A stretch of 43,171 bases of DNA from Patescibacteria group bacterium. Its GTDB lineage: Bacteria > Patescibacteriota > Minisyncoccia > Phycocordibacterales > JBBUBG01. Below, in pieces: positions 2 through 17,465 of the stretch (position 1 is its first letter; every line of letters begins with the position of its first letter). The stretch covers positions 1 through 43,171 of the forward strand of contig JAZKIQ010000010.1 in the NCBI GenBank assembly GCA_040384765.1, in the 5' to 3' direction. Position numbers and translations under genes: made by a program. The notes beneath the pieces were generated by a model. It was not told the origin of the DNA and made no database searches. It was given only the letters and a program-made list of their open reading frames with translations.

Positions 2-3000
2 GAGCTGGAGGAATGAACCGAAGCGGCCATCAAAGCCGTTGGCGAGGATGCCACCCACTGAGGTCGATGTAGCGGAAGCCGTGATGGTGAGGGTACCAAT
101 AGCGGCAGTGTTGGTGACGGTGAGTGCGGTGCCGGCTGCAGAAAAAGTATTCGTACCTGCGAATGCCTGACCCGCACGGTTGAGCAATGCAACATTTGAG
201 CTGAGGGCTGCATCTGCAATAGTCCCCGCTGACTGACCCACACAACCGAGAGCTGATTGGAAGCAACCCGCTGTTATGGAAAATCCGTTGATTGAGGAGG
301 TAGTTGCACCTGAGGTGATAAGGAATGCACCCCCTGTGAGCGTGATGCCATTTGAAGCGGCAATGCCCGTAGCCGACACAGAGGAAAGCGTATTGGTGGC
401 TGTGTTTGATTGGGTGATGATGCCGCCAGAGATCGTGATGCCGTTCGAAGAGGAAATGCCGGCTCCGGCAACCCCACCTGCAAACGTCGAAGTCGCACCA
501 TTTCCAAAGATTGTCGTAGATGAAGTACCGCCAATGACAATACGGTCGAGTGCGGTAACGGCAGTGGTGGAGGCACCGGCGCTGAATGTTTTAAGTGCAG
601 AGAAAGTTTGAGCGGTGTTAAGCAAAGCAACATTTGCAGAAAGGGCACCATCGAGAACCGTTCCTCCAGCCTGGCCGATGCAACCGAGGGTGGTGGCAAA
701 GCAGCCGGCGGAGAGGGAGATGCCGTTGGCGAAAGTGGAGGTGGCGGCGGAGGTGATGGTGATGGCACCCGAGGAGAGGATGGAGCCGCCAGTGAGGGTG
801 AGGCCATTTGAACTCGAGAGCCCCGCTCCTGCCACCCCGCCCGAGAACGTTGTAGTGGCTCCATTGCTTGTGATCGACGAGGTCGCACTTCCCGTCCCGA
901 GCAAGATCTGCTGGAGAGTCGCAAACTTGCCGTCGTATCCTGCTGCAGTGATGAAGCCGCCAACTGAAGTAGAGGTAGCGGAGCCGGTAATCGTGAGGGT
1001 GCCGATAGCAGCGGTGTTCGTAACGGTGAGTGCCGTGCCAGCGGAGGTGAATGAGTTGGTGCTGGTGAAAGTTTGTGATGAGCGGTTGAGGAGGGCGACA
1101 TTTGCGGAAAGGGCGGCGTCAGAGTTTGAGCAGACGCCGTTGATCGCGAAGCAGCCGGCGGAGAGGTTGATACCGTTGGCGAAGGTGGAGGTGGCGGCAG
1201 AGGTGGAGAGGATATTGCCACCAGTAAGCGTAATTCCGTTTGAGGCTGCGAGGCCGGCAGCACTAATAGATGAGAGCGTGTTGGTGGCGGTGTTTGACTG
1301 GTTGATGGTACCGCCAGAGATTGAGATGCCGTTCGAGGAAGAGACACCGGAAGCTGCTACGCCACCTGAGAAAGTGCTCGTTGCCCCACCAGTGATTGAA
1401 GAAGTTGCGCTCCCCGTCCCAAGCAAGATCTGCTGCGTTGTTAGGAATTTCGAGTCGAACCCTGCTGCGGTGATAAATCCTCCGACGGCTGTTGATGTTG
1501 CTGAACCCGTAATGGTGAGTGTACCAATGGCGGCAGTGTTCGTGACTGTGAGGGCCGTGCCAGCTGCGCTGAAGGTGTTCGTGCCAGTGAAGATTTGTCC
1601 ACTTCGGTTGAGCAAGGCAACGTTTGAAGAAAGTGCAGCATCCGCGATCGTGCCTGCGTCTTGTCCTACACAACCCAGTGCTGATCTGAAACAGCCAGAG
1701 GTGATGTTAAATCCGTTGTTCGAAGTTGTCGTTGCGCTTGAAGTAATCAACAACGCACCGCCGGTGAGGGTAATTCCGTTTGAAGCAGCGAGGCCTGCTG
1801 CGGAGATGGAGGAGAGCGTGTTAGTTGCCGTATTTGTCTGGAGAATGATTCCTCCTGTGACCGTCACCCCGTTTGACGATGAGACACCCGCTCCAGCGAT
1901 GCCGCCAGAAAATGTAGTTGTGGCTCCACCAGTAATTGATGATGTTGCCGAGCCAGTGCCAAGGAGAATCTGCTGTGTGGTGAGGAACTTTGAGTCGAAG
2001 CCCGCTGCGGTAATGAATCCACCGACAAAAGTAGATGTTGCGGAACCTGTGACTGTAAGCGTCCCGATTGCCGCTGTGTTGGTGACAGTGAGAGCAGTGC
2101 CAGCAGCGCTAAATGTATTGGCAGCGCTGAAAATCTGACCCGCACGATTGAGAAGCGCAACATTAGATGTCAGCGCAGCATCTGCAATTGTGCCTGCTGC
2201 CTGACCCACACAACCGAGCGAAGTGGCGAAGCAACCAGAAGTTGCGAGGAAACCGTTGTTTGATGTGGTGGTTGCGCCCGAGGTAATCAAGAATGCACCG
2301 CCAGTGAGGGTGATCCCGTTCGAGGCTGCGAGACCAGCAGCACTGACCGACGAGAGAGTGTTTGTTGCGGTGTTTGTTTGGAGAATCGTTCCGCCAGTCA
2401 CTGTCACACCGTTCGAGGAAGAAACACCGGATGCCGCTACCCCACCACTGAATGTACTGGTAGCCCCACCTGTGATCGATGAGGTTGCACTCCCCGTTCC
2501 GAGGAGAATCTGCTGAGTAGTAAGGAATTTAGAATCAAAACCTGCCGCTGAGAGAAGGCCACCCACAGCAGTTGATGTTGCCGAACCCGTGATGGTGAGC
2601 GTGCCGATGGCCGCTGTGTTTGTGACAGTGAGGGCAGTGCCGGCAGAGGAGAAGGTGTTGGTGCCGGTGAAGATCTGGCCAGTGCGATTGAGCAGAGCAA
2701 CGTTAGGTGAAAGTGCTGCATCAGAGTTCGAGCAGACACCATTGATAGCGAAGCAGCCGGCAGTGGTGTTGATACCGTTTGCGAAGGTGGAGGTGGCGAC
2801 GGAGGTGATGGTGAGAGCACCCGAGGAGAGGATGGAGCCGCCGGTGAGGGTGAGACCATTGGAAGAAGATACCCCCGCTGCTCCAACTCCACCAGCCAAC
2901 GTCGAGCTCGAAGTGTTTGTAACTGAAAGATTTGTTGCTGTCGTTGAGCCGAGTATCGCGCCGATATTTGTAGCGTTGATTGAGCCCGCGGTGACCGTCA

Positions 3001-5842
3001 CTCCGTTCGAGGACGAAAGGCCCGCTCCAGCTACCCCACCCGCAAAAGTTGAAGTTGCGCCATCTCCGAGGATAGTGGTGGTGGAGGTGTTGCCGATTGC
3101 GAACTTTGCGTTTGAACCAACAGCAGTGAGAGCTGTGGTGGAAGCTCCAGCAGTGAAAGTAGCCAGTGCGGAGAAGAAGTTGGTGCCGGTGAAGATCTGG
3201 CCAGAGCGGTTGAGCAATGCAACGTTTGGTGAAAGTGCACCATCCGAGTTTGAGCAGACACCAGCGATAGCGAAGCAACCTGTGGTGATATTGAAACCAT
3301 TATTGGACGTCGATGTTGCACTCGATGATATCAAGAGTGCACCGCCGGTGAGGGTCAAACCATTCGACGCCGCAATCCCGGCAGCCGAGATTGAGGAAAG
3401 CGTGTTGGTTGCGGTGTTCGACTGATTGATCGTACCGCCTGAGATCGAGATGCCGTTTGAGGAGGAAACTCCAGCTGCAGCAAACCCACCAGTTGTTGTC
3501 GTCGTTGCTCCGTTTGAAGTGAGCGTGGTGGTAGCTGAACCGTTGCCCAGATTGAGCTGGAGGAATGAACCGAAGCGGCCATCAAAGCCGTTGGCGAGGA
3601 TGCCACCGACTGCTGTTGAGGTGGCCGATCCGGTGATCGTGAGGGTGCCAATCGCTGCAGTGTTGGTGACAGTGAGGGCAGTGCCGGCAGCATTGAAGGT
3701 GTTGTCACCCGTGAAGATCTGGCCGGTGCGGTTGAGGAGGGCGACATTGGAGGTGAGCTGGTTGTCCGCCACGAGGGAACCGCTTCCTGTAACACACACG
3801 TTGTTTACTGCAAAACAGCCCGAGGTAATGTTGAAGCCGCCCGCCAAGGTTGAGGTGGCGTTTGAAGTTGAAAGTATGTTTCCACCGGTGAGGGTGAGAC
3901 CCTGTGAAGTCGAGAGACCCGCAGTTGAAACTCCACCTGCGAACGTCGAGCTCGAGGTGTTGGTGACCGAAAGATTTGTTGCTGTTGTAGAGCCAACGGT
4001 TGCGCCGATGTTCGTGGCGTTGATTGAGCCAGCAGTGATGGTGAGGCCGTTTGATGAGGAGACTCCCGCTCCTGCTACCCCGCCCGCGAAGGTGGAGGTT
4101 GCTCCATCTCCAAGGATGGTGGTGGTGGAGGTGTTGCCAATCGTAATGCCCGAAAGAGCGGTGAAGCGTGTCGATGAGGCATTGGTGATCGTGAGAAGAT
4201 CTGCCGCTCCATCGAAAAGGAAAGTTCCGTCTGAGTTGAGAGAGCTTACACCATCCCAGAAAGAAACACGGCCAGCCACTCCTGTGCCAGTGAGAGTACC
4301 CGCTCCTCCTCCGCCAATGCAAACACCGTTTATTGAAAAGCAGCCTGCACTGAGGTTGAGGCCGTTTGCAAAGGTGGAGCTAGCTGCGCCGGTAATGTTG
4401 AGTCCTGCTGCCTGGAGACTGCCGGCGAATGTCGAAGTGGCAAGTCCGCGAGCGGTGATCGTGGAGGTAGAGATAAGCGCGCCAACGGTTGTCGTACCAG
4501 CGATAACCGCATCGCCGTTGATACCAAGACGCGTACCTGGTGTTGTTGATCCAACACCCAGCCGGAAATTAGTATTATCCCAAATAAACTCACTACTTCC
4601 TCCGATTGAGCTTGCGCCATTCCAAAAGGTCAGCTGGCCTGCGGCACCACTGCCGGTAATAGTGCCTCCACCTCCACCTGCAATAACGCACGTGCCATTT
4701 ACGGCAAAACAACCAGAGCTGAGGTTGATACCAGAAGTAAAGGTTGTCGTCGCGCTACCGGACACCTCGAGAATGTCTGTTGAGAGAGCTCCTGCAAACG
4801 AGGAGGTACCTGAGCCAGAGTGAGAAAAAGAGGAGTCAGCGTAGAGAAGTGCCGAGGGCAGCATGGCGCTCGTGATACCAGTGATTGTGCCGCTAAGCGA
4901 AACATTCTGCAGTGTTGAGTCTGAGATTCTCACCCCTGCGAGCGTATCAATGCGATTTGAAAGTGCTACCGGCGAGAAATTGGGTGCATTGTGAACGAAC
5001 ACGGGACCGCCACCCGAGATACCGCTGGACAAAATCGAGTCCTGCGCACGGAGGATCTGGGTGGTGAGACGGTTCTCGAGCTGTTCAAGCTTCTGGTCGA
5101 AAGAGGTTGCATCCTTAGTCGAGACTGCTGCGCGCTCATAGATGATTCGCTCCCCAGGAAGGATTCTCTCAACGATAGTTGGGCGAATCGAGGACGTGAC
5201 ACTAACACCGGCTGTTCTGAGTAGAGCAATCTCCTCACGAAGGATAGCCACATCATCATCCCCTGAGGCGATAGTTCCTGGCTTGTCCTCCGCGAGGAGC
5301 GTAGGCTTTGCAAGCCATGGTGCAAAAATGAACTCTACAAAGCGTTTTGTATTCGTTGGAATCCCCTTGATATTTTTAACCACCGTATCGGCCAAAGTTG
5401 CACCCTCGGTAGCAGCCTTTTTTGTAGATCCAAACATGGCGGCAACTGGCGCGGAGTTTTCGATAACCTCTGCTACTCGCGCGATACCGTTTGCGAAGCT
5501 TGGATTTGAAAAAGCAAAGGCGACAATGAAAACCGCACAGCCAGCAAAAAGCTTTGGGAAAGAGAGAGTGAAAGTTTCATCTCGCTTACCATCTCTGATA
5601 ACCGAGATCTCCTTAATTTTTCTCGATTTTTCGAGGTTTGCCTCTGCCTGAAGACGCTGCTGATCCTGTCGATATGCAACGAGAGATTCTTCTTCGACAT
5701 ACCACGTGCGAGCGATGAGCTGTGAGCTAATTTTCCCACCGCGACAGAGCTGTCCGATGTAGTCGTTTGTATATCCATAACGCTCCGCCGCAAGGCGTGA
5801 TGGAATGTACTTTTTTCCTCCTAAATAGAGCTCCGACTTCAT
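2..5842 (-). CDS. Giant surface repeat protein (>=1947 aa, 3' end beyond window): N-terminal HTH, hydrophobic helix, Gly/Ser/Thr/Ala-rich repeats
   Basis: Hand translation from the ATG at 5842 gives MKSELYLGGKKYIPSRLAAERYGYTNDYIGQLCRGGKISSQLIARTWYVEEESL..., then LFAGCAVFIVAFAF. The same frame gives repeats such as ALLNRTGQIFTG, LTVTNTAAIGTLTITGSATST and GCFAINGVC, and is open at position 2. No stops in the segments I checked. It is absent from the ORF track because its stop is outside the window. Confidence 0.9.
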   Translation of the reverse strand, partial: MKSELYLGGKKYIPSRLAAERYGYTNDYIGQLCRGGKISSQLIARTWYVEEESLVAYRQDQQRLQAEANLEKSRKIKEISVIRDGKRDETFTLSFPKLFAGCAVFIVAFAFSNPSFANGIARVAEVIENSAPVAAMFGSTKKAATEGATLADTVVKNIKGIPTNTKRFVEFIFAPWLAKPTLLAEDKPGTIASGDDDVAILREEIALLRTAGVSVTSSIRPTIVERILPGERIIYERAAVSTKDATSFDQKLEQLENRLTTQILRAQDSILSSGISGGGPVFVHNAPNFSPVALSNRIDTLAGVRISDSTLQNVSLSGTITGITSAMLPSALLYADSSFSHSGSGTSSFAGALSTDILEVSGSATTTFTSGINLSSGCFAVNGTCVIAGGGGGTITGSGAAGQLTFWNGASSIGGSSEFIWDNTNFRLGVGSTTPGTRLGINGDAVIAGTTTVGALISTSTITARGLATSTFAGSLQAAGLNITGAASSTFANGLNLSAGCFSINGVCIGGGGAGTLTGTGVAGRVSFWDGVSSLNSDGTFLFDGAADLLTITNASSTRFTALSGITIGNTSTTTILGDGATSTFAGGVAGAGVSSSNGLTITAGSINATNIGATVGSTTATNLSVTNTSSSTFAGGVSTAGLSTSQGLTLTGGNILSTSNATSTLAGGFNITSGCFAVNNVCVTGSGSLVADNQLTSNVALLNRTGQIFTGDNTFNAAGTALTVTNTAAIGTLTITGSATSTAVGGILANGFDGRFGSFLQLNLGNGSATTTLTSNGATTTTTGGFAAAGVSSSNGISISGGTINQSNTATNTLSSISAAGIAASNGLTLTGGALLISSSATSTSNNGFNITTGCFAIAGVCSNSDGALSPNVALLNRSGQIFTGTNFFSALATFTAGASTTALTAVGSNAKFAIGNTSTTTILGDGATSTFAGGVAGAGLSSSNGVTVTAGSINATNIGAILGSTTATNLSVTNTSSSTLAGGVGAAGVSSSNGLTLTGGSILSSGALTITSVATSTFANGINTTAGCFAINGVCSNSDAALSPNVALLNRTGQIFTGTNTFSSAGTALTVTNTAAIGTLTITGSATSTAVGGLLSAAGFDSKFLTTQQILLGTGSATSSITGGATSTFSGGVAASGVSSSNGVTVTGGTILQTNTATNTLSSVSAAGLAASNGITLTGGAFLITSGATTTSNNGFLATSGCFATSLGCVGQAAGTIADAALTSNVALLNRAGQIFSAANTFSAAGTALTVTNTAAIGTLTVTGSATSTFVGGFITAAGFDSKFLTTQQILLGTGSATSSITGGATTTFSGGIAGAGVSSSNGVTVTGGIILQTNTATNTLSSISAAGLAASNGITLTGGALLITSSATTTSNNGFNITSGCFRSALGCVGQDAGTIADAALSSNVALLNRSGQIFTGTNTFSAAGTALTVTNTAAIGTLTITGSATSTAVGGFITAAGFDSKFLTTQQILLGTGSATSSITGGATSTFSGGVAASGVSSSNGISISGGTINQSNTATNTLSSISAAGLAASNGITLTGGNILSTSAATSTFANGINLSAGCFAINGVCSNSDAALSANVALLNRSSQTFTSTNSFTSAGTALTVTNTAAIGTLTITGSATSTSVGGFITAAGYDGKFATLQQILLGTGSATSSITSNGATTTFSGGVAGAGLSSSNGLTLTGGSILSSGAITITSAATSTFANGISLSAGCFATTLGCIGQAGGTVLDGALSANVALLNTAQTFSALKTFSAGASTTAVTALDRIVIGGTSSTTIFGNGATSTFAGGVAGAGISSSNGITISGGIITQSNTATNTLSSVSATGIAASNGITLTGGAFLITSGATTSSINGFSITAGCFQSALGCVGQSAGTIADAALSSNVALLNRAGQAFAGTNTFSAAGTALTVTNTAAIGTLTITASATSTSVGGILANGFDGRFGSFLQL
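176..3740 (-). repeat. Eight copies of an intragenic 146-180 aa repeat anchored on ALLN(R/T)
   Basis: The Asn codon of the anchor lies at 179, 617, 1085, 1607, 2147, 2687, 3209 and 3731. Spacings are 438, 468, 522, 540, 540, 522 and 522 bp. Confidence 0.9.
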
Positions 5843-5850
5843 GCCCTACA

Positions 5851-5906
5851 ATTGTAGCCTTTTGAATAGCCGAAATAGCCCTAAAACAAGCCATTTATGT
5901 GGATAA
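5851..5906 (-). promoter_or_regulatory. -10 box (TACAAT, 5851-5856) and a perfect DnaA box (5898-5906) upstream of the giant gene
   Basis: TACAAT lies 8 nt before the ATG. TGTGGATAA is the reverse complement of the consensus TTATCCACA. Confidence 0.6.
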
Positions 5907-6071
5907 ATAATAATTAAAAAAATAGCCAAAATATATTCATCAAAAATAGGAAATTTCTATCGTTTAAAAATAGACTTTCTAGGTGACCTTTTGTAAAAGA
6001 TGGCTCAGGATTTTAGTGAATTTCTAGCAAAAATGGGATACACCCTTCCGACAGGGTGTCCGCTATCCACG

Positions 6072-6109
6072 AAATAAGGTGATCTCGGCTAGCCGAGATC
6101 ACCTTATTT
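6072..6109. terminator. Perfect 38 bp palindrome, probable intrinsic terminator
   Basis: aaataaggtgatctcggct|agccgagatcaccttattt, no loop, downstream of the 6138..6749 gene. Confidence 0.7.
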
Positions 6110-6137
6110 TTCAACGTATTTTAGGACTCATTTTTTA

Positions 6138-6749
6138 TTACTCCCCTGACATGCCAAGCTTGTCGAGAATCTTCTCGTGCGGATAGTCGAGTACGTCCCG
6201 AATAAACTTGTCATACACCCCGAAGCGGTACTTAAAGTCGTCAGTCTCAAAAACACCGTAGGTTAGCTCCCGACCGATCTCTGCCTCCATAAGATGAATT
6301 GCATGCTCAAGTGCGTTTTTCTTGATGTCATCACCCACCAACAGAAGGTCCGCTCTACTTGTCTCTTCTTGGATAAAGATGCCTGACATTACAACAAGCT
6401 TGAGTTTTCCGACCCTACGGAGTCGCCGTACGATCTCCTCTTTGGTAAACGGAACCGTGTTCACGAGAAGGAGCTTGAGAGCATAGATGAATGGAAATGT
6501 GGGGTCGAGCTGCCAGCCCTTTGCGGCATTTTTTTGCCCCTTATCTACCCCCTCTGCGCTGGCCTTTGCGCGAGCTCGAACAAGCTTGATTTCGGCGAGC
6601 ATAGCAAGCTCGCGCTTTACCTCCTTTGGAATAACTTTGCTCCTTCGAATGACCGCTTCTGAACTAAAGATCTTTTCGGGGTTAAGCAAAAAAAGGCGGA
6701 GTATTTTCACGCGGGCCTGGCTTCCAAAAAGTTTTCCGAGCATGGGCAT
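6138..6749 (-). CDS. Winged-HTH protein with C-terminal degenerate nucleotidyltransferase-like domain
   Basis: N-terminal LFGSQARVKILRLFLLNPE...RELAMLAEIKLV looks like a wHTH. C-terminal VVMSGIFIQEETSRADLLLVGD...IGRELTYGVF looks MNT-like. The start may be 6743. Confidence 0.75.
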   Translation of the reverse strand: MPMLGKLFGSQARVKILRLFLLNPEKIFSSEAVIRRSKVIPKEVKRELAMLAEIKLVRARAKASAEGVDKGQKNAAKGWQLDPTFPFIYALKLLLVNTVPFTKEEIVRRLRRVGKLKLVVMSGIFIQEETSRADLLLVGDDIKKNALEHAIHLMEAEIGRELTYGVFETDDFKYRFGVYDKFIRDVLDYPHEKILDKLGMSGE

Positions 6750-6887
6750 TGAGTGAGGTTGTGATCGAATCGAGGCCTCATATTACCTCAAAGAGCGAGG
6801 GAGCGGAAGGAGGCCTCACGACAGTGATTCCAGTAGTTTCAGGACAGAAGAACGGAAGGGTTGGGCGTGCTTCTGGGCTTCTGTCCT

Positions 6888-6956
6888 AGAGCTCAAATAA
6901 GAAAAGAAAAATCCCCACGATCATCGTGGGGATTTTTCTTTTCTTATTTGAGCTCT
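6888..6956. terminator. Perfect 69 bp palindrome (34 bp arms, 1 nt centre) downstream of rplL
   Basis: agagctcaaataagaaaagaaaaatccccacgat-c-atcgtggggatttttcttttcttatttgagctct. Confidence 0.75.
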
Positions 6957-7036
6957 GCTTGTCACACATAAATTTCTGCTGAAATTTTGCGCGACCCCGC
7001 CTCGCCTGCCTTCGCAGGCTCCGGCCGAAGGCTGAG

Positions 7037-7417
7037 CTATTTAAGCTCTGCCTTGCCACCTGCTGCTTCGATGTCTGCCTTCATCTTCTCTGCTTCCTCT
7101 TTCTTCATCCCCTCCTTAAGCATTGTTGGCGCTTTGTCTACGAGGTCCTTTGCCTCCTTGAGACCAAGCCCGAGCACCTCCTTTACGATCTTAATGATCT
7201 GAATTTTCTGATCACCAGTTGCGGTAAGATGTACTGCAAACTCAGTCTTCTCTGATGCCGCCTCTGGGGCTGCACCTGGGGCTGCACCTGGGGCCATCAT
7301 CATGCCCGCTGACGCTGATACACCAAACTTTTCCTCGAGCACCTTTACGAGCTCAGAAAGATCGATGACACTCATTGTCTCGATCTTCTCTACGATTTCT
7401 TTGAATTTATCGTTCAT
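7037..7417 (-). CDS. rplL: 50S ribosomal protein L7/L12
   Basis: LSELVKVLEEKFGVSA, Ala-rich hinge, GLGLKEAKDLVD...AAGGKAELK. Confidence 0.98.
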   Translation of the reverse strand: MNDKFKEIVEKIETMSVIDLSELVKVLEEKFGVSASAGMMMAPGAAPGAAPEAASEKTEFAVHLTATGDQKIQIIKIVKEVLGLGLKEAKDLVDKAPTMLKEGMKKEEAEKMKADIEAAGGKAELK

Positions 7418-7510
7418 ACTAATTAGTAGTTTCAGGGCGGAAGTACCGAAGATCAGAAGTCAGATTTTTGCTTCTGACCTGAAACTTCTTCTGTACTTCT
7501 GGCCTTATTG

Positions 7511-8014
7511 TTAAGCTGCTACCTCTACTGCCTTCTTCTTCGCGATGGCATCAAGCACCGTCGCGAAGCTGCGAATCGGTCCATTGAGTACTCCAAGGAA
7601 CTGGGCATAGAGCACCTCACGTGAAGGGATCTTGCCGAGAGCAAGCACCTCTCCCGCTGCGATATAGCGCCCCTCAAAGATTCCTCCCAGCACTACAAAG
7701 CTCTCTTTGTGAGACTTTGCAAAGGTGGAAACCTCTCGTGATGGAGCAAGAATATCTGTTCCAAACGCGAATGCGACCTCTCCTTCGAGAGCGGGCCGAT
7801 CGCCTGTAATGCCTGCCTCGTCGAGAGCGCGAGCAAGAAGCGTTTTCTTGGTCACAGTATAACCCGAACCACTCTTGCGGAGAGTCCCGCGAAGAGCGGT
7901 CTGCTCGGAAACAGGGAGCTTGTGAAATTTCACAAACACCACCGAGCCGGCAGTGCCGATCTTCTGCTTGAGATCTTTTGCGATCTCTACTTTCTTTTCT
8001 TTTGTTATTGCCAT
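7511..8014 (-). CDS. rplJ: 50S ribosomal protein L10
   Basis: MAITKEKK..., VTKKTLLARAL, LGGIFEG, IPSREVLYAQFLGVLNGPI; lies directly upstream of rplL. Confidence 0.97.
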   Translation of the reverse strand: MAITKEKKVEIAKDLKQKIGTAGSVVFVKFHKLPVSEQTALRGTLRKSGSGYTVTKKTLLARALDEAGITGDRPALEGEVAFAFGTDILAPSREVSTFAKSHKESFVVLGGIFEGRYIAAGEVLALGKIPSREVLYAQFLGVLNGPIRSFATVLDAIAKKKAVEVAA

Positions 8015-8044
8015 TGGTTTCTTATGAAGCTGTGCCTCATAAAA

Positions 8045-8120
8045 TAAAAAACACGGCTAATAACCGTTGATCGACCCCTCGGCAGGACTTGCGCCTTATT
8101 GGCTGCCTGCTGTCTACGGT
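8045..8120 (-). promoter_or_regulatory. L10 leader (ribosomal protein autoregulatory RNA)
   Basis: The minus strand reads ACCGTAGACAGCAGG...CCTGCCGAGG just 5' of rplJ, matching the L10-leader pattern as I recall it. Confidence 0.8.
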
Positions 8121-10783
8121 TAGTGTGATAAATCTATAACAGAATCGGTGATGTTGTCAACAAAGGTAAGATTCGTTGCTCGAAGGATACCGTCAGCCTC
8201 CCCGGCAATGGCCACACCGTTGTGGATGAACAGGACCGAATCAAGATCTACTGGCGAACCATGATATCTAATCGCTGGGTCAAAGTTTGAAAGCCGAGCA
8301 TGGGAGATATCGGTATGTGCTGCGGTTCGAAGGAGAAGCCCCTGTGCACCGACAAGATTTTCAGGAAACTTTTGGCCATCACCAAAAAAGTCATTGCCAT
8401 CGCTATCGTCACTTATTGCAGAGATGCGCACCGGCGCTTCTTCTATACCGCGCACTGAAAGCGAGCCGTCGAGTATAAGCCGGCTCCCATCGATTTTCCA
8501 TACTACTCCGGGCTCGATGAGAAGATGTGAGTCCGTTTCAAAAATCGCAGCACTTCGAAAAGTGGCGTATGGAACCTCGTTTCGCTTAAGTACCCCCTGC
8601 TCCCCCGCACGTAAAGCAGTGCCAACAATCGCGATCCCATTCGCCTCTGTACCCGTTGCATTGTTGCCCTCAAAAATTGCACCCACCCCATCTGCTGAGA
8701 TGTATGCTGCTACGCCACCTCTAACCATATTGTGAGAAAATATACCGTGCGAGAAAACCGTTGAGATGCCCGTCTGGTACCCTTCGACCGTTACCCTCTC
8801 GACACGTGAGGTATCACTCTCCGCATATATCCCGGCCATAGTCACATCTCCCGGTGGTGCGGCAGACACAATATGCGTATCACGTATCTCTGAAGAGCCT
8901 CCCTGGAGATAGAGCCCGTACATACCATTTCCTTCAAGCGTGCAGCTCTGCACCCTGATACTGCTTCCCTCAACAAAAATACCTGAAGCAAGGTAGGATA
9001 TCCCGAGCGGCGAAAACTGTCCGCCAAAACGGATGAGGGAAGACTCCAAGGAGGAGTTCGTACTTCCCGGTTCAAAATAGAGATGTCTCCACGAGCCGCG
9101 TGTTGGGCAGGTCGCCTCCAGATCACGGCCACACACTCCGTCGCCATTTGAATCTCCTCCGTAGGTATCGTCAAAAATCGATGAGAAAACAACGGGAAAG
9201 CTCGGGGTACCACTCGCAACAAGAGTACCTGCCACCCGAAGCCCAGCGTCCGGAGCAAACTTTAGCACTGTGCCCGCGCCAAGCACAACTTTTGCATTGC
9301 TCGGGACAAGCAGATATGCGCGCACGATATAGGGACTATGTGCACGAGAGAGTACGGTTGTGGTGCCCTCGGCAAAAAAGGTGATCTCATTGGGACCATC
9401 TGAGGAGGCCTCGTCGTCGGGACCCCGAGCCGGGCTTGCTTCGGTGCTTGTGCTCATATCGACCTCTTCTTCACCGCTGCTTTCGTCCAAAGGGGAAGAA
9501 GGTGTTCCTTCTGACAAAGCCATCGATGCTACCCCTGATTCACGAGCCAAGTCAAAAACCTGTCGCAAAGGATCTCCTGTTTCAGTATCGTAGAGGTGGA
9601 TAGACGGCGCCCCAGGCAGCGGGCGAACCCGAGCAGCAAATGACTCTGACATCTCCCCGAGGACAACCTTCTCTTCCTTAACAACAAGAGGAAAGGTATC
9701 AGCTACCGAAAAAGGCTGAATTTCTGCCAAGATCGTGCGTTCATCTTGTGTCTCGACGAGTCGCTGCGGAGCTTCACCAACCTCCTCAAAAAAGAGACGA
9801 ACTACACCCGCGCTCGAACGCACCGCATATTCGGAAAGAACCTGCCAATACTGCTCCATGAGGGAGTTGTCATCAACCGTCAAAAAATATTTTCGCACTA
9901 GTTTCCCGCTCTCAAACTGGTACTGCCTCCCCACTCGCGCCACGGCGCTTGCGCCATATTCAGGGATAGACCTCATGGCAAAGAGTGCCTCATCGCCAGA
10001 TGCCGTTCTTTTGGCAGAAAAGTATTCAATGACGGGGCTTGTAAATGCAGGGTCCTCAATCGTATCTTTGGAAAAGAAGTGCCGATTTGAAAAAGACGCA
10101 GTCGAGTCAAAACCCTCCTCAATCGAAGAGAACACGAGGGGTACAACTCCCTTCTCCCCTAGCTGCTTTCCAACGCCTATCTCGCTAGGGCCAAACGACT
10201 TTGCGAACCTCTCAAAAGGCGAGCCGAATTCAAGGAGTGGCGGATGGGGATCGCCCCGGGTATGGTCTGGGACGGTCGCATCCTCGATGAGGTGGAGGAT
10301 ATGCCCGAGAACCTCCATCGCCTTCTCCCGCTCCCCGCTTTTGTATAAGCGAACTGCTTCCGGCCAAGTATGATCGATATTTTCCGGGTCGCCCCCAATC
10401 GCCCATTCCTTCGATGAGCTCCAGGGTCTGCCGAAATTGAGCTCTGAAAGATACGTAAGACCGGAGTTGTGAATTGGGTCGTAAAAATGCCGCATGAAGC
10501 GGTAGTCGAAATCTTCCTCGAAGGCACCCTTTACGAGGGCCTCTTCGTCCGAAGTAGAAAGAGCTGCATCCGAGTATGAGCTTCTATATAAACGAACCGC
10601 ATCGCGGGTAAGGCCGCGATGCGTGGTGTCGTCACTGTAGGCAAACGCTGGCGAAGCTGAAAAAAGGAATGCACAAAAAAAGATAACCAGAATACGCTTA
10701 AAATCGCTAGATCCGCGAAGTCGAGGAGAGAAAAGCTGAGCTGTACAGAGGTACAGTGAAGTTTTTGTCGACGAAGACGACAA
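8120..10783 (-). CDS. Secreted zinc-dependent phospholipase C/S1-P1-like protein with C-terminal beta-helix repeats
   Basis: Signal peptide KRILVIFFCAFLFSASPAFA. Motifs YSDDTTH, RHFYDP, LGHILHLIEDATVPDH and SPFE. An acidic linker is followed by two beta-helix modules (PVVFSSIFDDTYGGDSNGDG, PVRISAISDDSDGNDFFGDG). The start codon is uncertain. Confidence 0.7.
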   Translation of the reverse strand: MSSSSTKTSLYLCTAQLFSPRLRGSSDFKRILVIFFCAFLFSASPAFAYSDDTTHRGLTRDAVRLYRSSYSDAALSTSDEEALVKGAFEEDFDYRFMRHFYDPIHNSGLTYLSELNFGRPWSSSKEWAIGGDPENIDHTWPEAVRLYKSGEREKAMEVLGHILHLIEDATVPDHTRGDPHPPLLEFGSPFERFAKSFGPSEIGVGKQLGEKGVVPLVFSSIEEGFDSTASFSNRHFFSKDTIEDPAFTSPVIEYFSAKRTASGDEALFAMRSIPEYGASAVARVGRQYQFESGKLVRKYFLTVDDNSLMEQYWQVLSEYAVRSSAGVVRLFFEEVGEAPQRLVETQDERTILAEIQPFSVADTFPLVVKEEKVVLGEMSESFAARVRPLPGAPSIHLYDTETGDPLRQVFDLARESGVASMALSEGTPSSPLDESSGEEEVDMSTSTEASPARGPDDEASSDGPNEITFFAEGTTTVLSRAHSPYIVRAYLLVPSNAKVVLGAGTVLKFAPDAGLRVAGTLVASGTPSFPVVFSSIFDDTYGGDSNGDGVCGRDLEATCPTRGSWRHLYFEPGSTNSSLESSLIRFGGQFSPLGISYLASGIFVEGSSIRVQSCTLEGNGMYGLYLQGGSSEIRDTHIVSAAPPGDVTMAGIYAESDTSRVERVTVEGYQTGISTVFSHGIFSHNMVRGGVAAYISADGVGAIFEGNNATGTEANGIAIVGTALRAGEQGVLKRNEVPYATFRSAAIFETDSHLLIEPGVVWKIDGSRLILDGSLSVRGIEEAPVRISAISDDSDGNDFFGDGQKFPENLVGAQGLLLRTAAHTDISHARLSNFDPAIRYHGSPVDLDSVLFIHNGVAIAGEADGILRATNLTFVDNITDSVIDLSH

Positions 10784-10810
10784 AGGAGCTAGTGATTTTA
10801 AGCGTATTCT
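10689..10810. repeat. 122 bp palindromic (MITE/RPE-like) element
   Basis: Arms agaatacgcttaaaatcgctag (10689-10710) and ctagtgattttaagcgtattct (10789-10810) are 21/22 complementary. The central hairpin is ctgtac-agag-gtacag. Confidence 0.8.
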
Positions 10811-11279
10811 AGAGTTCTTCGACTTTCCATATATTAGTCGCTGGATTCTTTACCAGATCTATCAAAAACGGAATCCCATCATCTGCGACCTTAATACTGA
10901 ACTGATAGGTGCCTGAAAATGGCTCGCTCCCCGATTTTGGCCCGCGAAGGAGTGAGACAAACCCATCAATCGTGTTATGCGTCTTTCCCTCTTCGAAGCG
11001 CGATTTCATCACCATCTGCTTGTCGGGCATAAAATATTTCGAGGCTAGATCAAGATCCCCTTTTTCGAGAGCTGTGGCGAGAAGATCAATAGTACTATCA
11101 GGCGTCGCTCCACCGTACCTGTCCGTCGAATATTCCGCTGCCCATCGATCGATTCCCGCCTCTCGTGGATCTTTCTTTTGTGCAAAAGTACCTGTATAGA
11201 TCACGAGCACAAGCACCGCTACGATAATGCTCGCAAATATGCCGCTCTGCTTCCAAAAGGTTGAATCGAAATAGATCAT
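10809..11279 (-). CDS. Small single-pass membrane protein, unknown function
   Basis: N-terminal TM (IFASIIVAVLVLVIY), then DRYGGATPDSTIDLLATALEKGDLDLASKYF...WKVEEL. Tightly packed in the cassette. Confidence 0.8.
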   Translation of the reverse strand: MIYFDSTFWKQSGIFASIIVAVLVLVIYTGTFAQKKDPREAGIDRWAAEYSTDRYGGATPDSTIDLLATALEKGDLDLASKYFMPDKQMVMKSRFEEGKTHNTIDGFVSLLRGPKSGSEPFSGTYQFSIKVADDGIPFLIDLVKNPATNIWKVEEL

Positions 11280-11290
11280 CTATGACAAGT

Positions 11291-12547
11291 TTATTTTCTA
11301 AGCGTCAAAATCTCCCGACGAAGGGTAGCGAGCGCTTCCGCAAGAGCTGCTACGCGATCGAGTAGTGACTGGATATTGAAAGCTGATTCGAGGGAAGGAG
11401 CTGCTGACCCGCCACCTTCGCCACCGATGACAATCGAGGCATCCGGTGAGCGAAGTACTGCGGTAGTGCTTGCTGAAAGTGATAGCCGTGTAATTGAGCG
11501 CGGAAGCGTGACCATCGAGCGAGGGAGGACGATGGTATCTTGAGGAAAAACAAACGACTGGGTTGGTAGCTCGATCGTCCAGTTGCCAAGATTGACTTCG
11601 TACGGTGAGGTGTTTGCAAGCTCTATCCGCGAATCTCTCGGATCTGTAAAAATCGATACCGCAAGGGGCGCCACCTTTACCGCCGCACGGGCAACTGCGG
11701 AAGTATCACCAGCCACCGCATTGAGCACTACTGCATATTCACCAGGGAATCCGTATATTTTCGTCACCTTCTTTCCCAAAGAAGAGCTGCCATCGCCAAA
11801 GGACCACCGATACTCGATCGTAGAGGGGATAGTCCCCCGAGTACGAGCTTCGAAGGTAACGGGGGTACCGCGGGTTACCAGGCGGTCGCGACCGGCGGAG
11901 ACCGTAAAATCGTACTCGGGCACCTCATCGCTAAGTGTTATTGAGCTCGAGTGAGAAGAGGGAGCCGCACTCGCTCCAGCTGCTGCGGTAGTCGAGGCGA
12001 CAGCCGACACCACAGGAGGGAGTGTTTGTGGCTCTGCATTTTTTGCTTTTGGAGTGCTCGTAGCGGTGATCCAGCCGCTTCCGTTTTTTTGCATGGTCTC
12101 CTTCGTGGCGTTGTCTCCCGCTGGCCAGCCGCCCTTTGCATCAATAGTATCGAGCACCGCTCCGGTCCTATCTTTGAGCACGAGATACTCCCCGCTATTC
12201 GAGAGCCCGCCGCCGCCCCACGCACCCGATTCATCTGAAATGCCAGGCACCGGGTCCGGAGATGAGGCTGTAGTACGCTCGAGCAAGAGATATCCGCCAG
12301 GTGTAATTTTCTTGGATAGCACAAAAACGGAAACGGCGCCTCCCTCTTCAAAAAGGGAGGCGCCGCTGAGATCTACTTCTGCATCGCCCGAGTTGTACAA
12401 CTCTATCCACTCGGCAAACTGGCTCTCCTTGCTTCCCATCCAGGCAATCTCATTAAAAAGCACGGCAGCACTGACGGAGTGCGGCACAACCAAAAGAAGC
12501 ACCAAGAGAAAAAGGGAGCTTTTTGTGAGGATGCTGGATCGAATCAT
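11291..12547 (-). CDS. Secreted lamin-tail-domain / PKD-domain protein
   Basis: Signal peptide; LTD motifs FNEIAWMGS, EWIELYN and LSNSGEYLVL; PKD motif YRWSFGDGSS; second LTD-like segment IELAN...VNLGNWTI; C-terminal coiled coil. Confidence 0.85.
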   Translation of the reverse strand: MIRSSILTKSSLFLLVLLLVVPHSVSAAVLFNEIAWMGSKESQFAEWIELYNSGDAEVDLSGASLFEEGGAVSVFVLSKKITPGGYLLLERTTASSPDPVPGISDESGAWGGGGLSNSGEYLVLKDRTGAVLDTIDAKGGWPAGDNATKETMQKNGSGWITATSTPKAKNAEPQTLPPVVSAVASTTAAAGASAAPSSHSSSITLSDEVPEYDFTVSAGRDRLVTRGTPVTFEARTRGTIPSTIEYRWSFGDGSSSLGKKVTKIYGFPGEYAVVLNAVAGDTSAVARAAVKVAPLAVSIFTDPRDSRIELANTSPYEVNLGNWTIELPTQSFVFPQDTIVLPRSMVTLPRSITRLSLSASTTAVLRSPDASIVIGGEGGGSAAPSLESAFNIQSLLDRVAALAEALATLRREILTLRK

Positions 12548-13221
12548 TGCTTGGCAAGCGCGGCTAGCTCCTTATCTCCTGGATTATTCTTCAATCCCAG
12601 ATCAGCTACAGCACGTGCCTTTGTCATGTCTTTGAGTACATTCTTGTAGAAGTCGTATGCCTGGAAGTAGATATAGCCCGCTTTGGGATCGGCAGCGATA
12701 GCTGCCTTGAAGCTAGCCTCTGCTTTTATGTTGTCGCGAAGCGTGTAGGCGTAGAGATCGGCAAGGTTTCCGTACGGAACCACGAACGAAGGAGAAAGTT
12801 TTGATGCATACTCCCATGCTGCAATAGTGCCCGGGTAGTCTCCAAGGGTCTTCCGAAAAGTGCCCAGAGTCACCCACTCCTCGATATTGCTTGGATCTCT
12901 CGTGAGAGACACCTGGAGAGAACGCACCTTATCAGTAACAATCTTCCACGCCTCGGCTGTCATAGAGGTATCCTTAATAAGAACTTTTGGCGTTTTTGTG
13001 AGGTCCGGAATGGGCTGAGGCAAAGAACCTTCCCCTGACGGCACCACCTCGATAGTACCCACTTTTTTCCCATCAACAATATAATCTTGCACTCCCGAAA
13101 CCGGAACATGTATGTTTTCGCCCAGTGGCGTCGTATCGAGATCCTTGTAGGCAAAAAATCCAACCAGAGCAAGAACCAGTACAACAGTTACGGCAAGAAG
13201 AGGCCTTTTGTATTCGGTCAT
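12544..13221 (-). CDS. Membrane-anchored TPR protein
   Basis: N-terminal TM; TPR-like WVTLG...GDYPGTIAAWEYASKLSP...YGNLADLY...AEASFKAAIAADP. Overlaps the next gene by ATGA. Confidence 0.85.
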   Translation of the reverse strand: MTEYKRPLLAVTVVLVLALVGFFAYKDLDTTPLGENIHVPVSGVQDYIVDGKKVGTIEVVPSGEGSLPQPIPDLTKTPKVLIKDTSMTAEAWKIVTDKVRSLQVSLTRDPSNIEEWVTLGTFRKTLGDYPGTIAAWEYASKLSPSFVVPYGNLADLYAYTLRDNIKAEASFKAAIAADPKAGYIYFQAYDFYKNVLKDMTKARAVADLGLKNNPGDKELAALAKQ

Positions 13222-13318
13222 AAGAATAGTCTACCAAAATGAGTAAAGGGAAACCAGGCACGATCGTGCCCTGTCTCTCTTTTGACCGAAAGGAGGGCAA
13301 AATGTGACCAGGTATGCG

Positions 13319-13389
13319 TTTTGTTTTTGGAACCAAGGCTGCCCCTTGGTTCCAAAAACAAAAAGACCACTCAAAAGAGTGGTCTTTTT
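13319..13389. terminator. Tandem hairpins (20 bp and 13 bp perfect arms) downstream of the S-layer-like gene
   Basis: ttttgtttttggaaccaagg-ctgcc-ccttggttccaaaaacaaaa overlaps aaaaagaccactc-aaaa-gagtggtcttttt. Confidence 0.75.
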
Positions 13390-13442
13390 GCTAGCTTTCA
13401 GACCGCTACCCTTTCGGGCTTAGGTACTGAACACAAGCGCTA

Positions 13443-16400
13443 TTAGTTGTTTCGTGTCTGGATGAGACCGTTCTGTGGGAAGCCTGGAAGACCAAACCCG
13501 TTGGTGTAGTCGTTATCCGTGGCGTTTCCGTTGAGGGTCGTCGTCGAGAACGGTGACCAGATCAAGTTGTCGTTTGTATCCAACTCAACAACTGTGGTCG
13601 AAGCCATGAAGATGGCTGTCGTGCCGTTGTTGCCGAGTGAAGGATATGCAGAGTCACCCTTGAGAGTCGTTGTAACCGAGTACGAAGTTGCACCACCTAC
13701 GATGCCAACTGTACCGCGAACCTCAAAGTAGATCGAGCCACCAGCTGGAACCTGTACGAGTGTTACCCCGGCAGCGCTGGTCTGAGCAAGAATCTCAACC
13801 TGACCTGTACTGTCTGGAGCAACGTTCGATGCCATCATCTGGCCACCTGTCGAGACTGTCGACACACCTTGTGAGTATGCTGAGTCCTGATAAGCGAAGA
13901 TGTTGACACTCGTTACTGTAGCCGAGCTTGTAGCAAAGCCAACAGTAAACTTCTGGATACCGAGCGGTCCGTTGGCATTTGCCGTTACCTTAAAGCGCAT
14001 CAAACGTCCGTCTGAAACACCATTCTGAGGAAGGGTTTCAAGAGCGAATGTTGGGAACGACTTGAAGAGACGGATACCAGCGAATGTCGTTGAACCAGAT
14101 GAACCTGATGTTGCAAGGTTGATCTTCGTTCCTGACTCAACACCAGTACCTTCGGTACCAGTCGTGTCAGTGCTGTTGAGATCTACCTTGATCAAGTGAC
14201 CTGACGTACCGGTCTGTGAAGTACCGACCTGTGCGAGATCAAGCTTGATCGTGAGAACCTTGTCTGAATCCTTCGGAAGAAGGAGCGTCGAAGCGAACGT
14301 TGATGTTGCCACCAAGTTCGTACCTGTGAAGGTAGCCTCACCAACCTTTGTTAGACCATCCCAGAGCGATACCTTTACGAGGTCTGACGAAGATGACGAA
14401 GCGATTGTGTCGTTCGTAAGCTTGAGTCCTACCTTCTCGAGGTTGATAGCCTGGTTTGATGCTCGGAACTTAAGAACACCTGCGGTGATGCCAGTGGCGC
14501 CACCTGCTGCAACCGTGTAGGAAGGAGCAGAAGCGTCAGCAGATACCGTGAGTGAACCGCCGCCGATCGTCATCGTAGGACCAGTACCGTTCGAAAGACT
14601 ACCGGTCGTTGATACAGACGAGCCTGACGTTACGCCAGTTGCTGTAATCGAAGTGCCAGTGATCTTCCAAACAAAGGTGCCTGATGCTGAAGACGAAAGG
14701 TTGCACTTAAGTGCAAGCGTCTTGATGGAACCCTTTGGAACAACGTAGGAGTTGTCGAGAGTAAGCGTGTACGTAGCTGTACCTGCTACTCCGTTTACAA
14801 CGTTCGAGCCAGTGTTGAGGGCTGTTGTGCCGTCAAATGCCTGACACGAAGATACCTGCGCTTCCATGTTGGATGTACCAACAGTGAGGGTGAGCGGAAG
14901 TGTCGAGAAGCGTACATCCTCACCAGACTGCGTTCCATCAAACTGGAAGTTCACAAGGAGGCGAGATACGCCACCTGCAACAATCGTCTGGCTTGTTGGA
15001 TCCGTTGAAGCGCGCACATCAAGTGCTGCGGCCTTCACCGTCATGGTGTTCATAACAACCTGCGTCGAGAGAGCAGAAAGGCTAATTGTGTTGCCTGAGA
15101 TCTGACCCTGAACGGTTGACCACTGTGATGACGGAGTTGTCTTCGCAATGTAGGTCTCGCCGTTTGCAGCGTTTGTTGGAACCTTACCCTTGAGGGTGTA
15201 TACGTGGCGGCCAATTGGGTAGGTAATCGTGTCCGTGAAGGTCAAAGTCTGATTACCGTCACCACTCGTGCCGTCCGTTGCGTCTACTGGACCTGCAACA
15301 ACGCGGCCGCTCTCATCGAGAATTGTTACGTTCGTGAGGAGAGAAGCACCACCGTTACCTGTTGTCGTTGAAACCGTGAAGATCGTCGAGGCAACTGAAA
15401 TCGCCTCTCCCTTAAGATCTACAACGTATCCACCGATAACCTGGTTTGGTACGTTAACTGCAATGTTCTGAGCAGGAACTTCGGCTGCTTTTGAAACAGT
15501 CGTTACAGAGCCTGCTGAGATGGTGATCGTTGACGAATCGAAGAACGGAGTGCTTGGAGTACCCGAGCTTGTACCATCCGAAGTCAAGAACTCAGAACCT
15601 GTCGTTGCCGACGAAGCGATGTTTCCTGATGCTGTCGGAGTGATTCCGTATCCGAAGTTGTCACCCACGAGGTAGAAGTCCGTGTTCTTGTAGATATCGA
15701 ACTTAACCGTGCGGTTTGCGGCGCCAGTTCCCGTGATGTCACCTTTTACAGTGATATCCTTCGAGAAACCTTTGTCGATCAAGATGCCACCCGATCCAAA
15801 GAGGGTCGTGTAGTACTTGCCGTCTGAAGATACCACTGTTGGGTATCCTACGCCGTCAACATACGTCTGGATGTTCGAAAGATCGTTCTTCGAAGCTGAA
15901 CCTGACTGGTTCCAGCGGATCGAAAGAAGGCGAACTTTCTCAGCCGATCCTGCCGTGAGGCGGATGCCAGCGAAGTTGTATGCCGTCGTGCCGATCTCCT
16001 TGGTGTTTGCAGTGTTTGGATCTTGCGAAGCAAGAAGAAGCGTTGCAGTACCGAGTGAGAGCGATGCGTTGATCGTGTTCTGTGCACCAGTGATTGGGAG
16101 AGAACCCGATACGCTTGCTGACGTGTTAATGCCTACGAGTGCAAGTACTGCAACCTGACCAGCCTTTGTAGCAAGGCTTGATGCCATGTTACCAGCGATG
16201 GTGTAGGTCTTCGTTGTTCCCTTTGGAACAGTGAAGGTGCCTCCAATCGTCGCGCGGTGGTCTGAGTTGAAGGTCTTTGCAACGTCAAGCTGGATGCCAT
16301 CCTGATCGAGGAGGACAACGCCAGCGAAGACTGCGTCGTCTGCAAGGCCCATGCGCTCTACTACTACGCCGTTTACTACGATATCGCCATCGTTAGATGC

Positions 16401-17036: not shown

Positions 17037-17465
17037 GATTGCTTGGTTTGATAAGTGAAACTGAAATGAACGAGCGCGCTCTTCGACAAGACGCACCTCG
17101 TGCATAATCTCTTTTCGGCATGCGCATCTCCATGTGTCCAATATGGAGCGCGAGCACAAGTAAAGAGAGGGAAACTAAATGGTTCTAAACCAGAGTGTGT
17201 CTCTGGCTTTTGTATACCTCTATTTTGATGTCAATGAGCGAGCCGTCCGGAAATGTGTTGCTTTGTGTATTGAAACGGTGCAACTTCTTACAGTGTGCGT
17301 GAGTACCAGTATAGTACCCCCAATCTCAACCTTCAAAGCGGGTAATGTGGATATCAAGCCGTAAAGCTCTTATTTTTAGCCATACTTTTGGCCAAAAACT
17401 ATCCCATTTCAGGCTGTATAAAGCCTACCCTCCAGGGTCAGTAAAGTCAAGCAAATACAGGGTAT

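Follow-up and report, generated by a model that had tools for sequence, protein, structure and literature searches.

A giant, fibre-like protein of a Patescibacteria-type bacterium headed by an excisionase/BldC-type winged helix and a single hydrophobic segment

What is a domain of a DNA-binding type doing at the head of a protein that otherwise resembles a giant surface fibre? The question is raised by a gene at the start of the window analysed here, i.e., bases 1-43,171 of a contig of 93,296 bases (G000:C10:1-43171) from a genome, G000, of 822,710 bases in 12 contigs (99.8% complete, GC fraction 0.52). The product of this gene, P0001, extends for at least 1947 residues from a winged helix-turn-helix (HTH) domain through a charged linker and one hydrophobic segment into a neck and a long repetitive region (Table 1). 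The frame belongs to a genuine chromosomal gene, of which it is the 5' portion, in a bacterium of the Patescibacteria or Candidate Phyla Radiation (CPR) type. Sequence and fold evidence together provided good support for assignment of residues 1 to approximately 63 to the excisionase/BldC type of winged helix, and comparisons across the phylum pointed to a portable module made up of this HTH, the linker and a transmembrane (TM) segment.

The P0001 frame leaves the contig at the start of the window, with its C-terminus unassembled. A TAG is present two codons 5' of the ATG and the initial methionine aligned with the first residue of homologues; thus, a start downstream of the HTH is not required. 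A Logan contig from a public run (record 8, 1070 bases) spanned positions 4899-5968 with 0 differences and no indels and so covered the upstream DNA, the ATG, the HTH, the hydrophobic segment and the neck in one piece, although this run may be the source sample, in which case the bridging contig is not independent support. The sequencing runs listed included no RNA holder. Occurrence of the same architecture in a paralog within the genome and in dozens of relatives excluded chance as its origin. A previous, sequence-only reading of the window had reported an open reading frame (ORF) of at least 1947 codons at 2-5842. Its length and span were correct but its orientation was not, since the frame is on the minus strand; reading of 2..5842 on the plus strand encountered many stops. 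The residue ranges given in that reading were accurate to within a few residues (12-54 for the peptide it quoted, 98-111 for the hydrophobic core and 115-117 for S-F-A). It had named three findings that would overturn it, namely absence of an HTH fold, a later start, and interruption of the frame by a stop or frameshift before the repeats. In the event, the fold was predicted, the start was retained and the frame was continuous. It had also proposed to obtain the full ORF by extending the contig; a search of the assembly revealed no matching C-terminal part of P0001 on the other contigs of G000. Two long plus-strand frames, 615-2138 (507 aa) and 3426-4823 (465 aa), were noted antisense to P0001 and are most likely shadows of its stop-poor repeats.

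Identification of the N-terminal domain depended on its relatives. With Pfam HTH_17 (PF12728), scores for P0001 were 12.2 bits for the whole protein and 18.1 bits for residues 1-103, which missed the gathering score of 27 bits, whereas the paralog passed (28.9 and 34.1 bits), as did 14 of 14 relatives tested. A family hidden Markov model (HMM), built from 168 domain copies among homologues that were matched by HMMER with the N-termini of P0001 and the paralog as queries, scored 87.6 bits (E 1.6e-25) against P0001 and, over the whole of G000, detected only two carriers, namely P0001 and the giant paralog on contig C1 (61.3 bits). The P0001 HTH is thus, by transitive homology, a divergent member of HTH_17. 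Neither P0001 nor the paralog had a Pfam match at E<=1 to the OmpR/PhoB-type domain Trans_reg_C; for P0001 the only match was HTH_17, and the score of HTH_31 in the paralog was just 14 bits. A search of NCBIfam gave nothing beyond a sub-threshold excisionase match, which was in the paralog. Relatives were not evident from a word-indexed homologue search with residues 1-135, which returned P0001 itself alone, and exhaustive HMMER searching was needed.

The fold predicted for this domain agreed with the sequence evidence. In an AlphaFold2 (AF2) model based on a 24-row alignment, the predicted local distance difference test (pLDDT) score was 96-98 for residues 11-70 and 90 for residues 1-10, and the strands (E) and helices (H) were E5-7, E10-14, H15-22, H26-35, E40-43, E46-50 and H51-76, in the order beta-beta-alpha-alpha-beta-beta-alpha. 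Structural neighbours in the VIA comparison were a 72-residue chain of PDB 6hn7, from helper-phage packaging (Z 7.9), Pukovnik Xis (Z 6.9, root-mean-square deviation 2.1 A over 53 of 54 residues), BldC (Z 6.4), other excisionases and MerR N-domains (Z 5-5.8), TraN (Z 4.6) and RacA (Z 4.2); a further match was to a chain from a study of a viral DNA-packaging motor, taken as a terminase small subunit. As every VIA Z-score was below 8, the fold search by itself was merely suggestive. Target-normalised Foldseek TM-scores were 0.72 for Xis and 0.71 for BldC with weak E-values, nothing in the PDB reached E<=1e-3 by Foldseek, and PDB sequence searches performed with P0001 and with the domain profile matched no solved chain. 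Two residues, R34 at the end of helix 2 and W47, were invariant in 24 of 24 alignment rows. Conserved basic positions were noted at the start of helix 1, at the end of helix 2 and in the wing, and the presumed recognition helix, D-Y-I-G-Q-L-x-R-x-G-K, was almost invariant across the family. The net charge of the HTH was +3 in P0001 and +1 at the family median, with 51% of the 168 copies positive. A weak copy of the domain (29.6 bits) was also seen at the C-terminus of a Fic-domain protein (L044:6134-7069, plus strand), from which it follows that the domain is not limited to membrane proteins.

The HTH is joined by a stretch rich in E, R, K and Q (residues 55-95) to the only hydrophobic peak of P0001 in a Kyte-Doolittle scan of the whole protein (approximately 91-117, value 1.97). 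A lysine and an arginine directly precede the segment on its N-terminal side, as K or R does in most of the 33 giant relatives printed. The basic flank of a membrane segment stays cytoplasmic under the positive-inside rule, by which P0001 would be oriented N-in/C-out with the HTH in the cytoplasm and the remainder outside. Confinement of cysteine pairs to the ectodomain fits this orientation. The uncharged run is 15 residues long in P0001, compared with medians of 18 in 33 giant members and 20 in 139 small members of the family (interquartile range 18-22). Viewed as a possible Sec signal peptide, the same region would have an n-region of 97 residues and a core of 15 residues, followed by S-F-A. 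Signal peptidase I (PF10502, TIGR02227) was not detected in the G000 assembly, in which the sole S24-type match (C5:32492-33169) was LexA-like. Since strong matches to signal peptidase I were found in 30 of 30 relatives, its absence is probably an assembly gap, and the idea of an organism that lacks the enzyme was dropped. A Peptidase_M50 site-2 protease was identified in G000 (196 bits, gene at C5:15741-16784), while no rhomboid protease was found there. The site-2 protease gene is flanked by two genes for MreB (443 and 437 bits; G000:C5:13141-19897).

Beyond the membrane segment, threonine, glycine, alanine and serine make up 62% of residues 330-1947. Ten repeat units of 123-180 aa, each closed by a G-C-F-x5-C loop, were recognized in this region, the first loop being at the end of a 55-residue lead-in. 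The units were 68-84% identical at the DNA level, and no DNA repeats were called in the gene by Tandem Repeats Finder. When three copies of the unit at residues 1212-1391 were modelled together, a trimer was predicted with ipSAE values of 0.79, 0.80 and 0.78 (median 0.79), compared with 0.00 for the best of three controls. Over 1100 contacts extended along nearly all of the unit, the pLDDT was 82 or higher, and 92% or more of the contacts recurred between runs. In calibration, 20 of 30 proteins with solved homo-pair structures reached this mark, as did 1 of 23 for which the solved structure was a single chain; these counts apply only roughly here because a custom 11-row alignment of paralogous repeats was used. 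The model supports, but does not prove, a repeat shaft that is an intertwined homotrimer.

How such a fibre may end was suggested by the paralog (L008, G000:C1:64000-74000, minus strand 8187..1626). Its HTH and hydrophobic segment were followed by six units with Cys loops, a region rich in glycine and then a scaffold gap of ten Ns. On the far side of the gap were two stretches of Peptidase_S74 (78.5 bits), an Ig-like domain of bacterial type and a tail rich in Pro and Glu. Read across the gap, the pieces of the paralog probably make up a single gene of over 2180 codons. The C-terminal piece matched tail-fibre families of PHROG, whereas PHROG searches with P0001 and P0002 gave no match, and no YadA-type barrel anchor was seen in the paralog with Pfam. 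Domains of the S74 type are self-cleaving trimerisation chaperones of endosialidases and tail fibres. The HTH and Peptidase_S74 were also found in uninterrupted proteins, namely L024 (complete, 2430 aa, 53.5 bits), P0198 and P0206. Among 61 giant proteins with a neck and first repeats like those of P0001, Peptidase_S74 was present in 18, of which two, P0198 and P0206, also carried the HTH.

Recurrence of this architecture was evident from database and genome searches. HMMER searches with the N-termini of P0001 and the paralog matched 5302 representative proteins with a threshold of E<=1e-3 and 1601 with one of E<=1e-10. When 401 sampled genomes of the phylum were searched for the domain at E<=1e-5, the HTH was matched in 50, and 19 distinct frames of at least 900 aa (up to 6895 aa) were found in 18 of the genomes. 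For 17 giant frames fetched from 17 other genomes, the HTH was within the first 127 residues in every case (first copy within 120), and the order of HTH, hydrophobic segment at residues 130-540 and T/G/S/A-rich sequence was the same in all, 13 of these frames ending at contig edges. The largest member encountered (L023, G321:C2 at approximately 70,000-90,700), a frame of 6895 codons of which the first 5000 residues were scanned, begins with two tandem HTH copies. Related proteins are already present in public databases, most of them without a name or as 'hypothetical protein'. The names and taxa given for carriers of the cassette were 'hypothetical protein' of Patescibacteria, Kaiseribacteriota, Minisyncoccota and similar groups, while some of the neck relatives bore generic labels ('tail fiber domain-containing protein', 'hemagglutinin family' or 'fibronectin-binding autotransporter adhesin').

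The cassette was not restricted to giant proteins. Among the 149 best non-self matches, 143 had a hydrophobic segment; the first such segment started at a median of residue 246 and was followed by a median of 49 residues. Proteins of only 200-450 aa that have hardly any ectodomain also carried the cassette. In a genome of the same order (G143:C3, L046/L032), a small HTH-TM gene (263 aa) was located directly upstream of a giant HTH-TM-fibre gene, both after SecA-Obg-GatB, and in G337 a small HTH-TM gene was followed by pilin-like (N_methyl) genes. A single HTH was found in 7 of 7 small HTH-TM proteins of the phylum sample and two HTH copies in 2 of the 17 giants. The proposal that small proteins use tandem HTHs while giants gain valency by trimerising was rejected, as the excess of tandem copies was traced to ranking bias in the homologue search. 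Conversely, the fibre was not restricted to proteins with the cassette. Of the 61 neck relatives, 12 had the HTH, 27 had a hydrophobic segment that started within the first 45 residues, as expected of an ordinary signal peptide or anchor, 21 (many of them partial) had neither and 1 had a later hydrophobic segment. The fibre is thus independent of the HTH, and the cassette is an add-on. From these sequence comparisons, we infer that the HTH-linker-TM cassette is a portable module of the phylum, interchangeable on homologous fibres with an ordinary signal peptide. The architecture had been anticipated by the sequence-only reading. Its excisionase/MerR-like HTH_17 fold was upheld by the family HMM score of 87.6 bits, the AF2 model and the Xis and BldC matches, and its single hydrophobic helix between a charged linker and S-F-A by the hydropathy scan. 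The more than 1500 aa of mostly repetitive G/S/T/A-rich sequence that it described correspond to the ten units with their 62% content of T, G, A and S, and the single-repeat AlphaFold model that it had suggested gave the predicted homotrimer with ipSAE 0.79. Its mention of similar architectures in CPR genomes was borne out by the 50 of 401 sampled genomes and the 19 frames of at least 900 aa. The three roles that it offered (host-contact sensor, chromosome tether and HTH released by proteolysis) are hypothetical and are taken up below. New relative to that reading are the tail-fibre likeness and predicted trimer of the ectodomain, the portability of the HTH-TM cassette and its replacement by a plain signal peptide on homologous fibres, and the failure to find a conserved DNA motif upstream.

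Comparison with known systems indicated partial likeness to several. Like phage tail fibres, tailspikes and endosialidases, P0001 is a long T/G/S/A-rich fibre with a predicted intertwined homotrimer, and the paralog and relatives end in Peptidase_S74. In contrast with these phage proteins, the P0001 gene is cellular and chromosomal, is situated among housekeeping genes and is not part of a phage or prophage virion, and the N-terminus of its product is an HTH with a membrane helix as opposed to a virion-attachment domain. The P0001 HTH resembles Xis, BldC and TraN in fold and size (Z 6.9, 6.4 and 4.6), with family membership through relatives. However, those proteins are soluble and approximately 55-120 aa long, while this HTH heads a membrane protein of at least 1947 aa and its DNA binding is putative. 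Regulators such as ToxR, CadC, TcpP and VtrA have a cytoplasmic N-terminal winged HTH, one transmembrane helix and an extracytoplasmic domain, an order shared by P0001 if its topology is as proposed, but they contain an OmpR-type domain and small outer sensor domains where P0001 has an HTH_17-type domain and a giant, predicted trimeric fibre. In RodZ, an XRE-type cytoplasmic HTH that grips MreB is connected by one TM helix to a small periplasmic domain. The P0001 HTH is likewise tethered by one helix and need not bind DNA, and MreB is encoded in G000; it differs in that its HTH is of the HTH_17 type and in its fibre, which RodZ lacks. To our knowledge, no member of the ToxR-like or RodZ families carries a giant fibre. 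RacA and Noc tether the chromosome to the pole or membrane, RacA by way of DivIVA as opposed to a helix of its own. RacA was a weak structural match to the P0001 HTH (Z 4.2) and is a precedent for DNA fixed to the envelope, but it has neither an extracellular part nor its own membrane helix. Finally, P0001 shares with trimeric autotransporters and giant fibrillar adhesins the character of a giant, repetitive, predicted-trimeric surface fibre but would be anchored N-terminally in the cytoplasmic membrane, and no YadA-type barrel was seen in the paralog. No description of an HTH-TM-fibre architecture was found in full-text searches of the literature (supplements aside) or in passages of the Patescibacteria papers PMC10633639, PMC11665869 and PMC12102498. 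Both halves are of kinds already known, i.e., HTH_17 winged helices and S74-type trimeric fibres.

The DNA around the gene provided further context. The direct repeats immediately upstream of the ATG form the only cluster in the genome with at least 3 copies in 60 nt (308 motif copies in total), the motif GGCTA[TC][TA] having been picked after it was seen. A conserved operator was considered and dropped, as the repeats had no counterpart upstream of 20 homologous genes. In a sigma-70 and terminator scan of positions 5700-6300, results were not above those for shuffled sequence, and no terminator was called, the palindrome in Table 1 included. Neighbours of the gene encode ribosomal proteins L10 and L7/L12, FtsK, RecA and envelope proteins, with no phage genes among them, and no match was found when the N-terminus and the fibre were compared by tblastn with 50,697 phage records, a search in which the low-complexity filter may hide the fibre. 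Large genes of envelope type are present upstream on the minus strand at 8120-17159 and include those for an 887-aa right-handed beta-helix protein, a 418-aa lamin-tail and PKD protein, a TPR protein and a protein of 1238 aa that contains a peptidoglycan-binding domain. The recA gene (21043-22101, plus strand) has one in-frame TAG at 21391-21393, so that ORF lists show pieces of 116 and 206 aa; this TAG could be a sequencing error, a mark of a pseudogene or a recoding event.

Table 1. Positions of the P0001 frame, its parts and upstream features in the 43,171-base window
Feature	Residues	Position	Strand	Remarks
Whole frame, protein P0001	1-1947	5842..2	minus	At least 1947 codons; ATG at 5842; open at base 2
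Excisionase/BldC-type winged HTH (HTH_17 clan)	1-63	5654..5842	minus	Putatively cytoplasmic; from profile and AF2 model
Charged linker	64-94	5561..5653	minus	Third helix of the HTH domain extends to about residue 76
Hydrophobic segment, core L98-F111, then S-N-P-S-F-A	95-117	5492..5560	minus	Signal-anchor or cleavable signal-peptide core
Juxtamembrane neck with short coiled-coil-like stretch	118-330	4853..5491	minus	Common to homologous fibres with a plain signal peptide
T/G/A/S-rich fibre	331-1947	2..4852	minus	Ten G-C-F-x5-C Cys loops and an incomplete eleventh unit at the contig edge
Four GGCTA[TC][TA]-type direct repeats, candidate operator		5853..5927	minus	Between promoter-like site and ATG
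Promoter-like site, TAGAAA-18-TATATT		5930..5959	minus	2 sites vs 1.3 +/- 1.2 in shuffles, not significant
Perfect 26-nt palindrome, then TTATTT		6078..6103	minus	Downstream of the preceding gene (6138-6749), which it separates from the giant gene; read directly

The explanation that we favour is that P0001 is a giant surface fibre of the tail-fibre type, in which the fibre would be the part for adhesion or host contact. Such a long trimeric fibre would be supported by three membrane helices and would present three HTH domains to the cytoplasm, and the HTH-linker-TM cassette would add permanent membrane anchoring and a contact in the cytoplasm. That contact would be with DNA, either as a tether of nucleoid to envelope or as a local regulator in the style of ToxR. 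We give this explanation as a whole, including DNA contact at the membrane, about an even chance, the step to DNA being one that we infer. Several observations weigh against it. Thus, the P0001 copy of the HTH is itself below the Pfam HTH_17 cut-off (18.1 vs 27 bits), and net charges of +3 for this copy and +1 for the family median appear nearly neutral for a DNA binder. A recognition helix that is nearly identical over thousands of proteins is unusual for sequence-specific regulators and would fit a protein partner as well. The GGCTA motif was not enriched upstream of 20 homologous genes, including that of the paralog (0-2 per up to 200 nt), and neighbourhoods of 8 related small HTH-TM genes were of housekeeping character (RNR, L20/IF3, SecA-Obg-GatB, FtsW) with no informative partner. 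The 15-residue run with S-N-P-S-F-A looks more like a signal peptide than the family median of 18-20 does, and cleavage could therefore release the fibre. Support for the trimer comes from a model for which paralogous repeats were aligned, while an AF2 monomer of two units gave no useful structure (pLDDT 35.9). The C-terminus of P0001, where S74 might be expected from its relatives, is beyond the contig end.

A rival explanation with the same anatomy is that the HTH-like domain is a protein-binding handle, which would tie the base of the fibre to a cytoskeletal, secretion or assembly partner. A nearly invariant recognition helix suggests one common ligand, the median charge of +1 is near neutral, no conserved motif was found upstream of the 20 homologous genes, and the two MreB genes of G000 (443 and 437 bits) could supply a partner of the kind known for RodZ. 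However, most of the top structural relatives (Xis, BldC, MerR, TraN, RacA and terminase small subunits) are DNA binders, helix 1 (at its start), helix 2 (at its end) and the wing have conserved basic residues, related genes share no neighbour that could encode a partner, and the HTH differs from the XRE type of RodZ; such a handle appears rather unlikely. In a second alternative, which the sequence-only reading had also offered, the hydrophobic segment would be the core of an extra-long signal peptide. In this case, signal peptidase I cuts between residues 117 and 118 and frees the fibre, and the site-2 protease then clears or releases the HTH remnant, one per exported fibre, as an export-coupled signal. 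Site-2 proteases cleave remnant signal peptides, and Peptidase_M50 is encoded in G000 (196 bits). The 15-residue run, a proline at -4 and small residues at -3 and -1 are as expected for cleavage, the motif S-F-(A/G)-(N/Q)-G is common to P0001 and the paralog, 27 of 61 homologous fibres use ordinary signal peptides, and signal peptidase I was found in 30 of 30 relatives, although its absence from the G000 assembly, probably an assembly gap, counts to some extent on the other side. In contrast, the segment in the family is of transmembrane length (median 18 in the 33 giants and 20 in the 139 small members), cleavage makes little sense for most small members with their approximately 49 residues after the segment, and residues just after the segment look conserved, by eye, between small and giant members. 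We regard cleavage of this kind as unlikely.

P0001 could also be a one-component host-contact sensor in the style of ToxR or CadC, in which load or ligand on the fibre would alter HTH occupancy of an operator such as the GGCTAT repeats. The order of cytoplasmic HTH, one TM helix and ectodomain is that of ToxR-like proteins, and the four-repeat cluster at 5853-5927, unique in the genome, is just upstream of the ATG. On the other hand, the motif was chosen post hoc and is absent upstream of the paralog and 19 other homologous genes, passage of a signal through a single helix from a fibre of more than 1800 residues is hard to picture, the cassette is also carried by proteins with almost no ectodomain, and homologous fibres work without it, all of which make such a sensor very unlikely. 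That the gene is an artefact, whether an assembly chimera, a pseudogene or the tail-fibre gene of a prophage fused by accident with a gene for an excisionase, is hardly credible. The gene is rich in repeats and at a contig edge, Logan contigs of the run were fragmented across repeats, and both halves are domain types common in phages; nevertheless, the same fusion was found in the paralog, in 17 giant frames of 17 other genomes and in 12 database proteins, the HTH-TM-neck junction was bridged by a contig with 0 differences, the neighbours (L10, L7/L12, FtsK and RecA) are not phage genes, and tblastn returned nothing from the 50,697 phage records. A wider conjecture, which we consider decidedly unlikely, is that the cassette serves throughout the phylum to couple surface organelles to the chromosome. 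In one version, three Xis/BldC-like domains per fibre would hold DNA at the fibre base; in the other, cleavage of an extra-long signal peptide, by signal peptidase and then the site-2 protease, would set free a DNA-binding domain for each fibre exported, by which the cell would count or sense export or engagement. We know of no described bacterial precedent for either coupling mechanism among giant adhesins.

Little is understood of the ways in which Patescibacteria, which live on other cells, attach to their hosts and sense them. The present analysis defines a recurrent module, with thousands of representatives, in which a winged helix of the Xis/BldC type is tied to the membrane by one helix and which, in a subset of proteins, would be the inner foot of giant fibres at the surface, similar to the tail fibres of phages. 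Both halves are phage-like types redeployed by the cell. The module also offers defined pieces for experiment, namely a 63-residue domain, a 180-residue predicted trimerising unit and a candidate operator. If the HTH binds DNA, these proteins would constitute a rare direct link, by protein, from an adhesive organelle outside the cell to the nucleoid or to gene expression, and would do so in organisms that have very few regulators.

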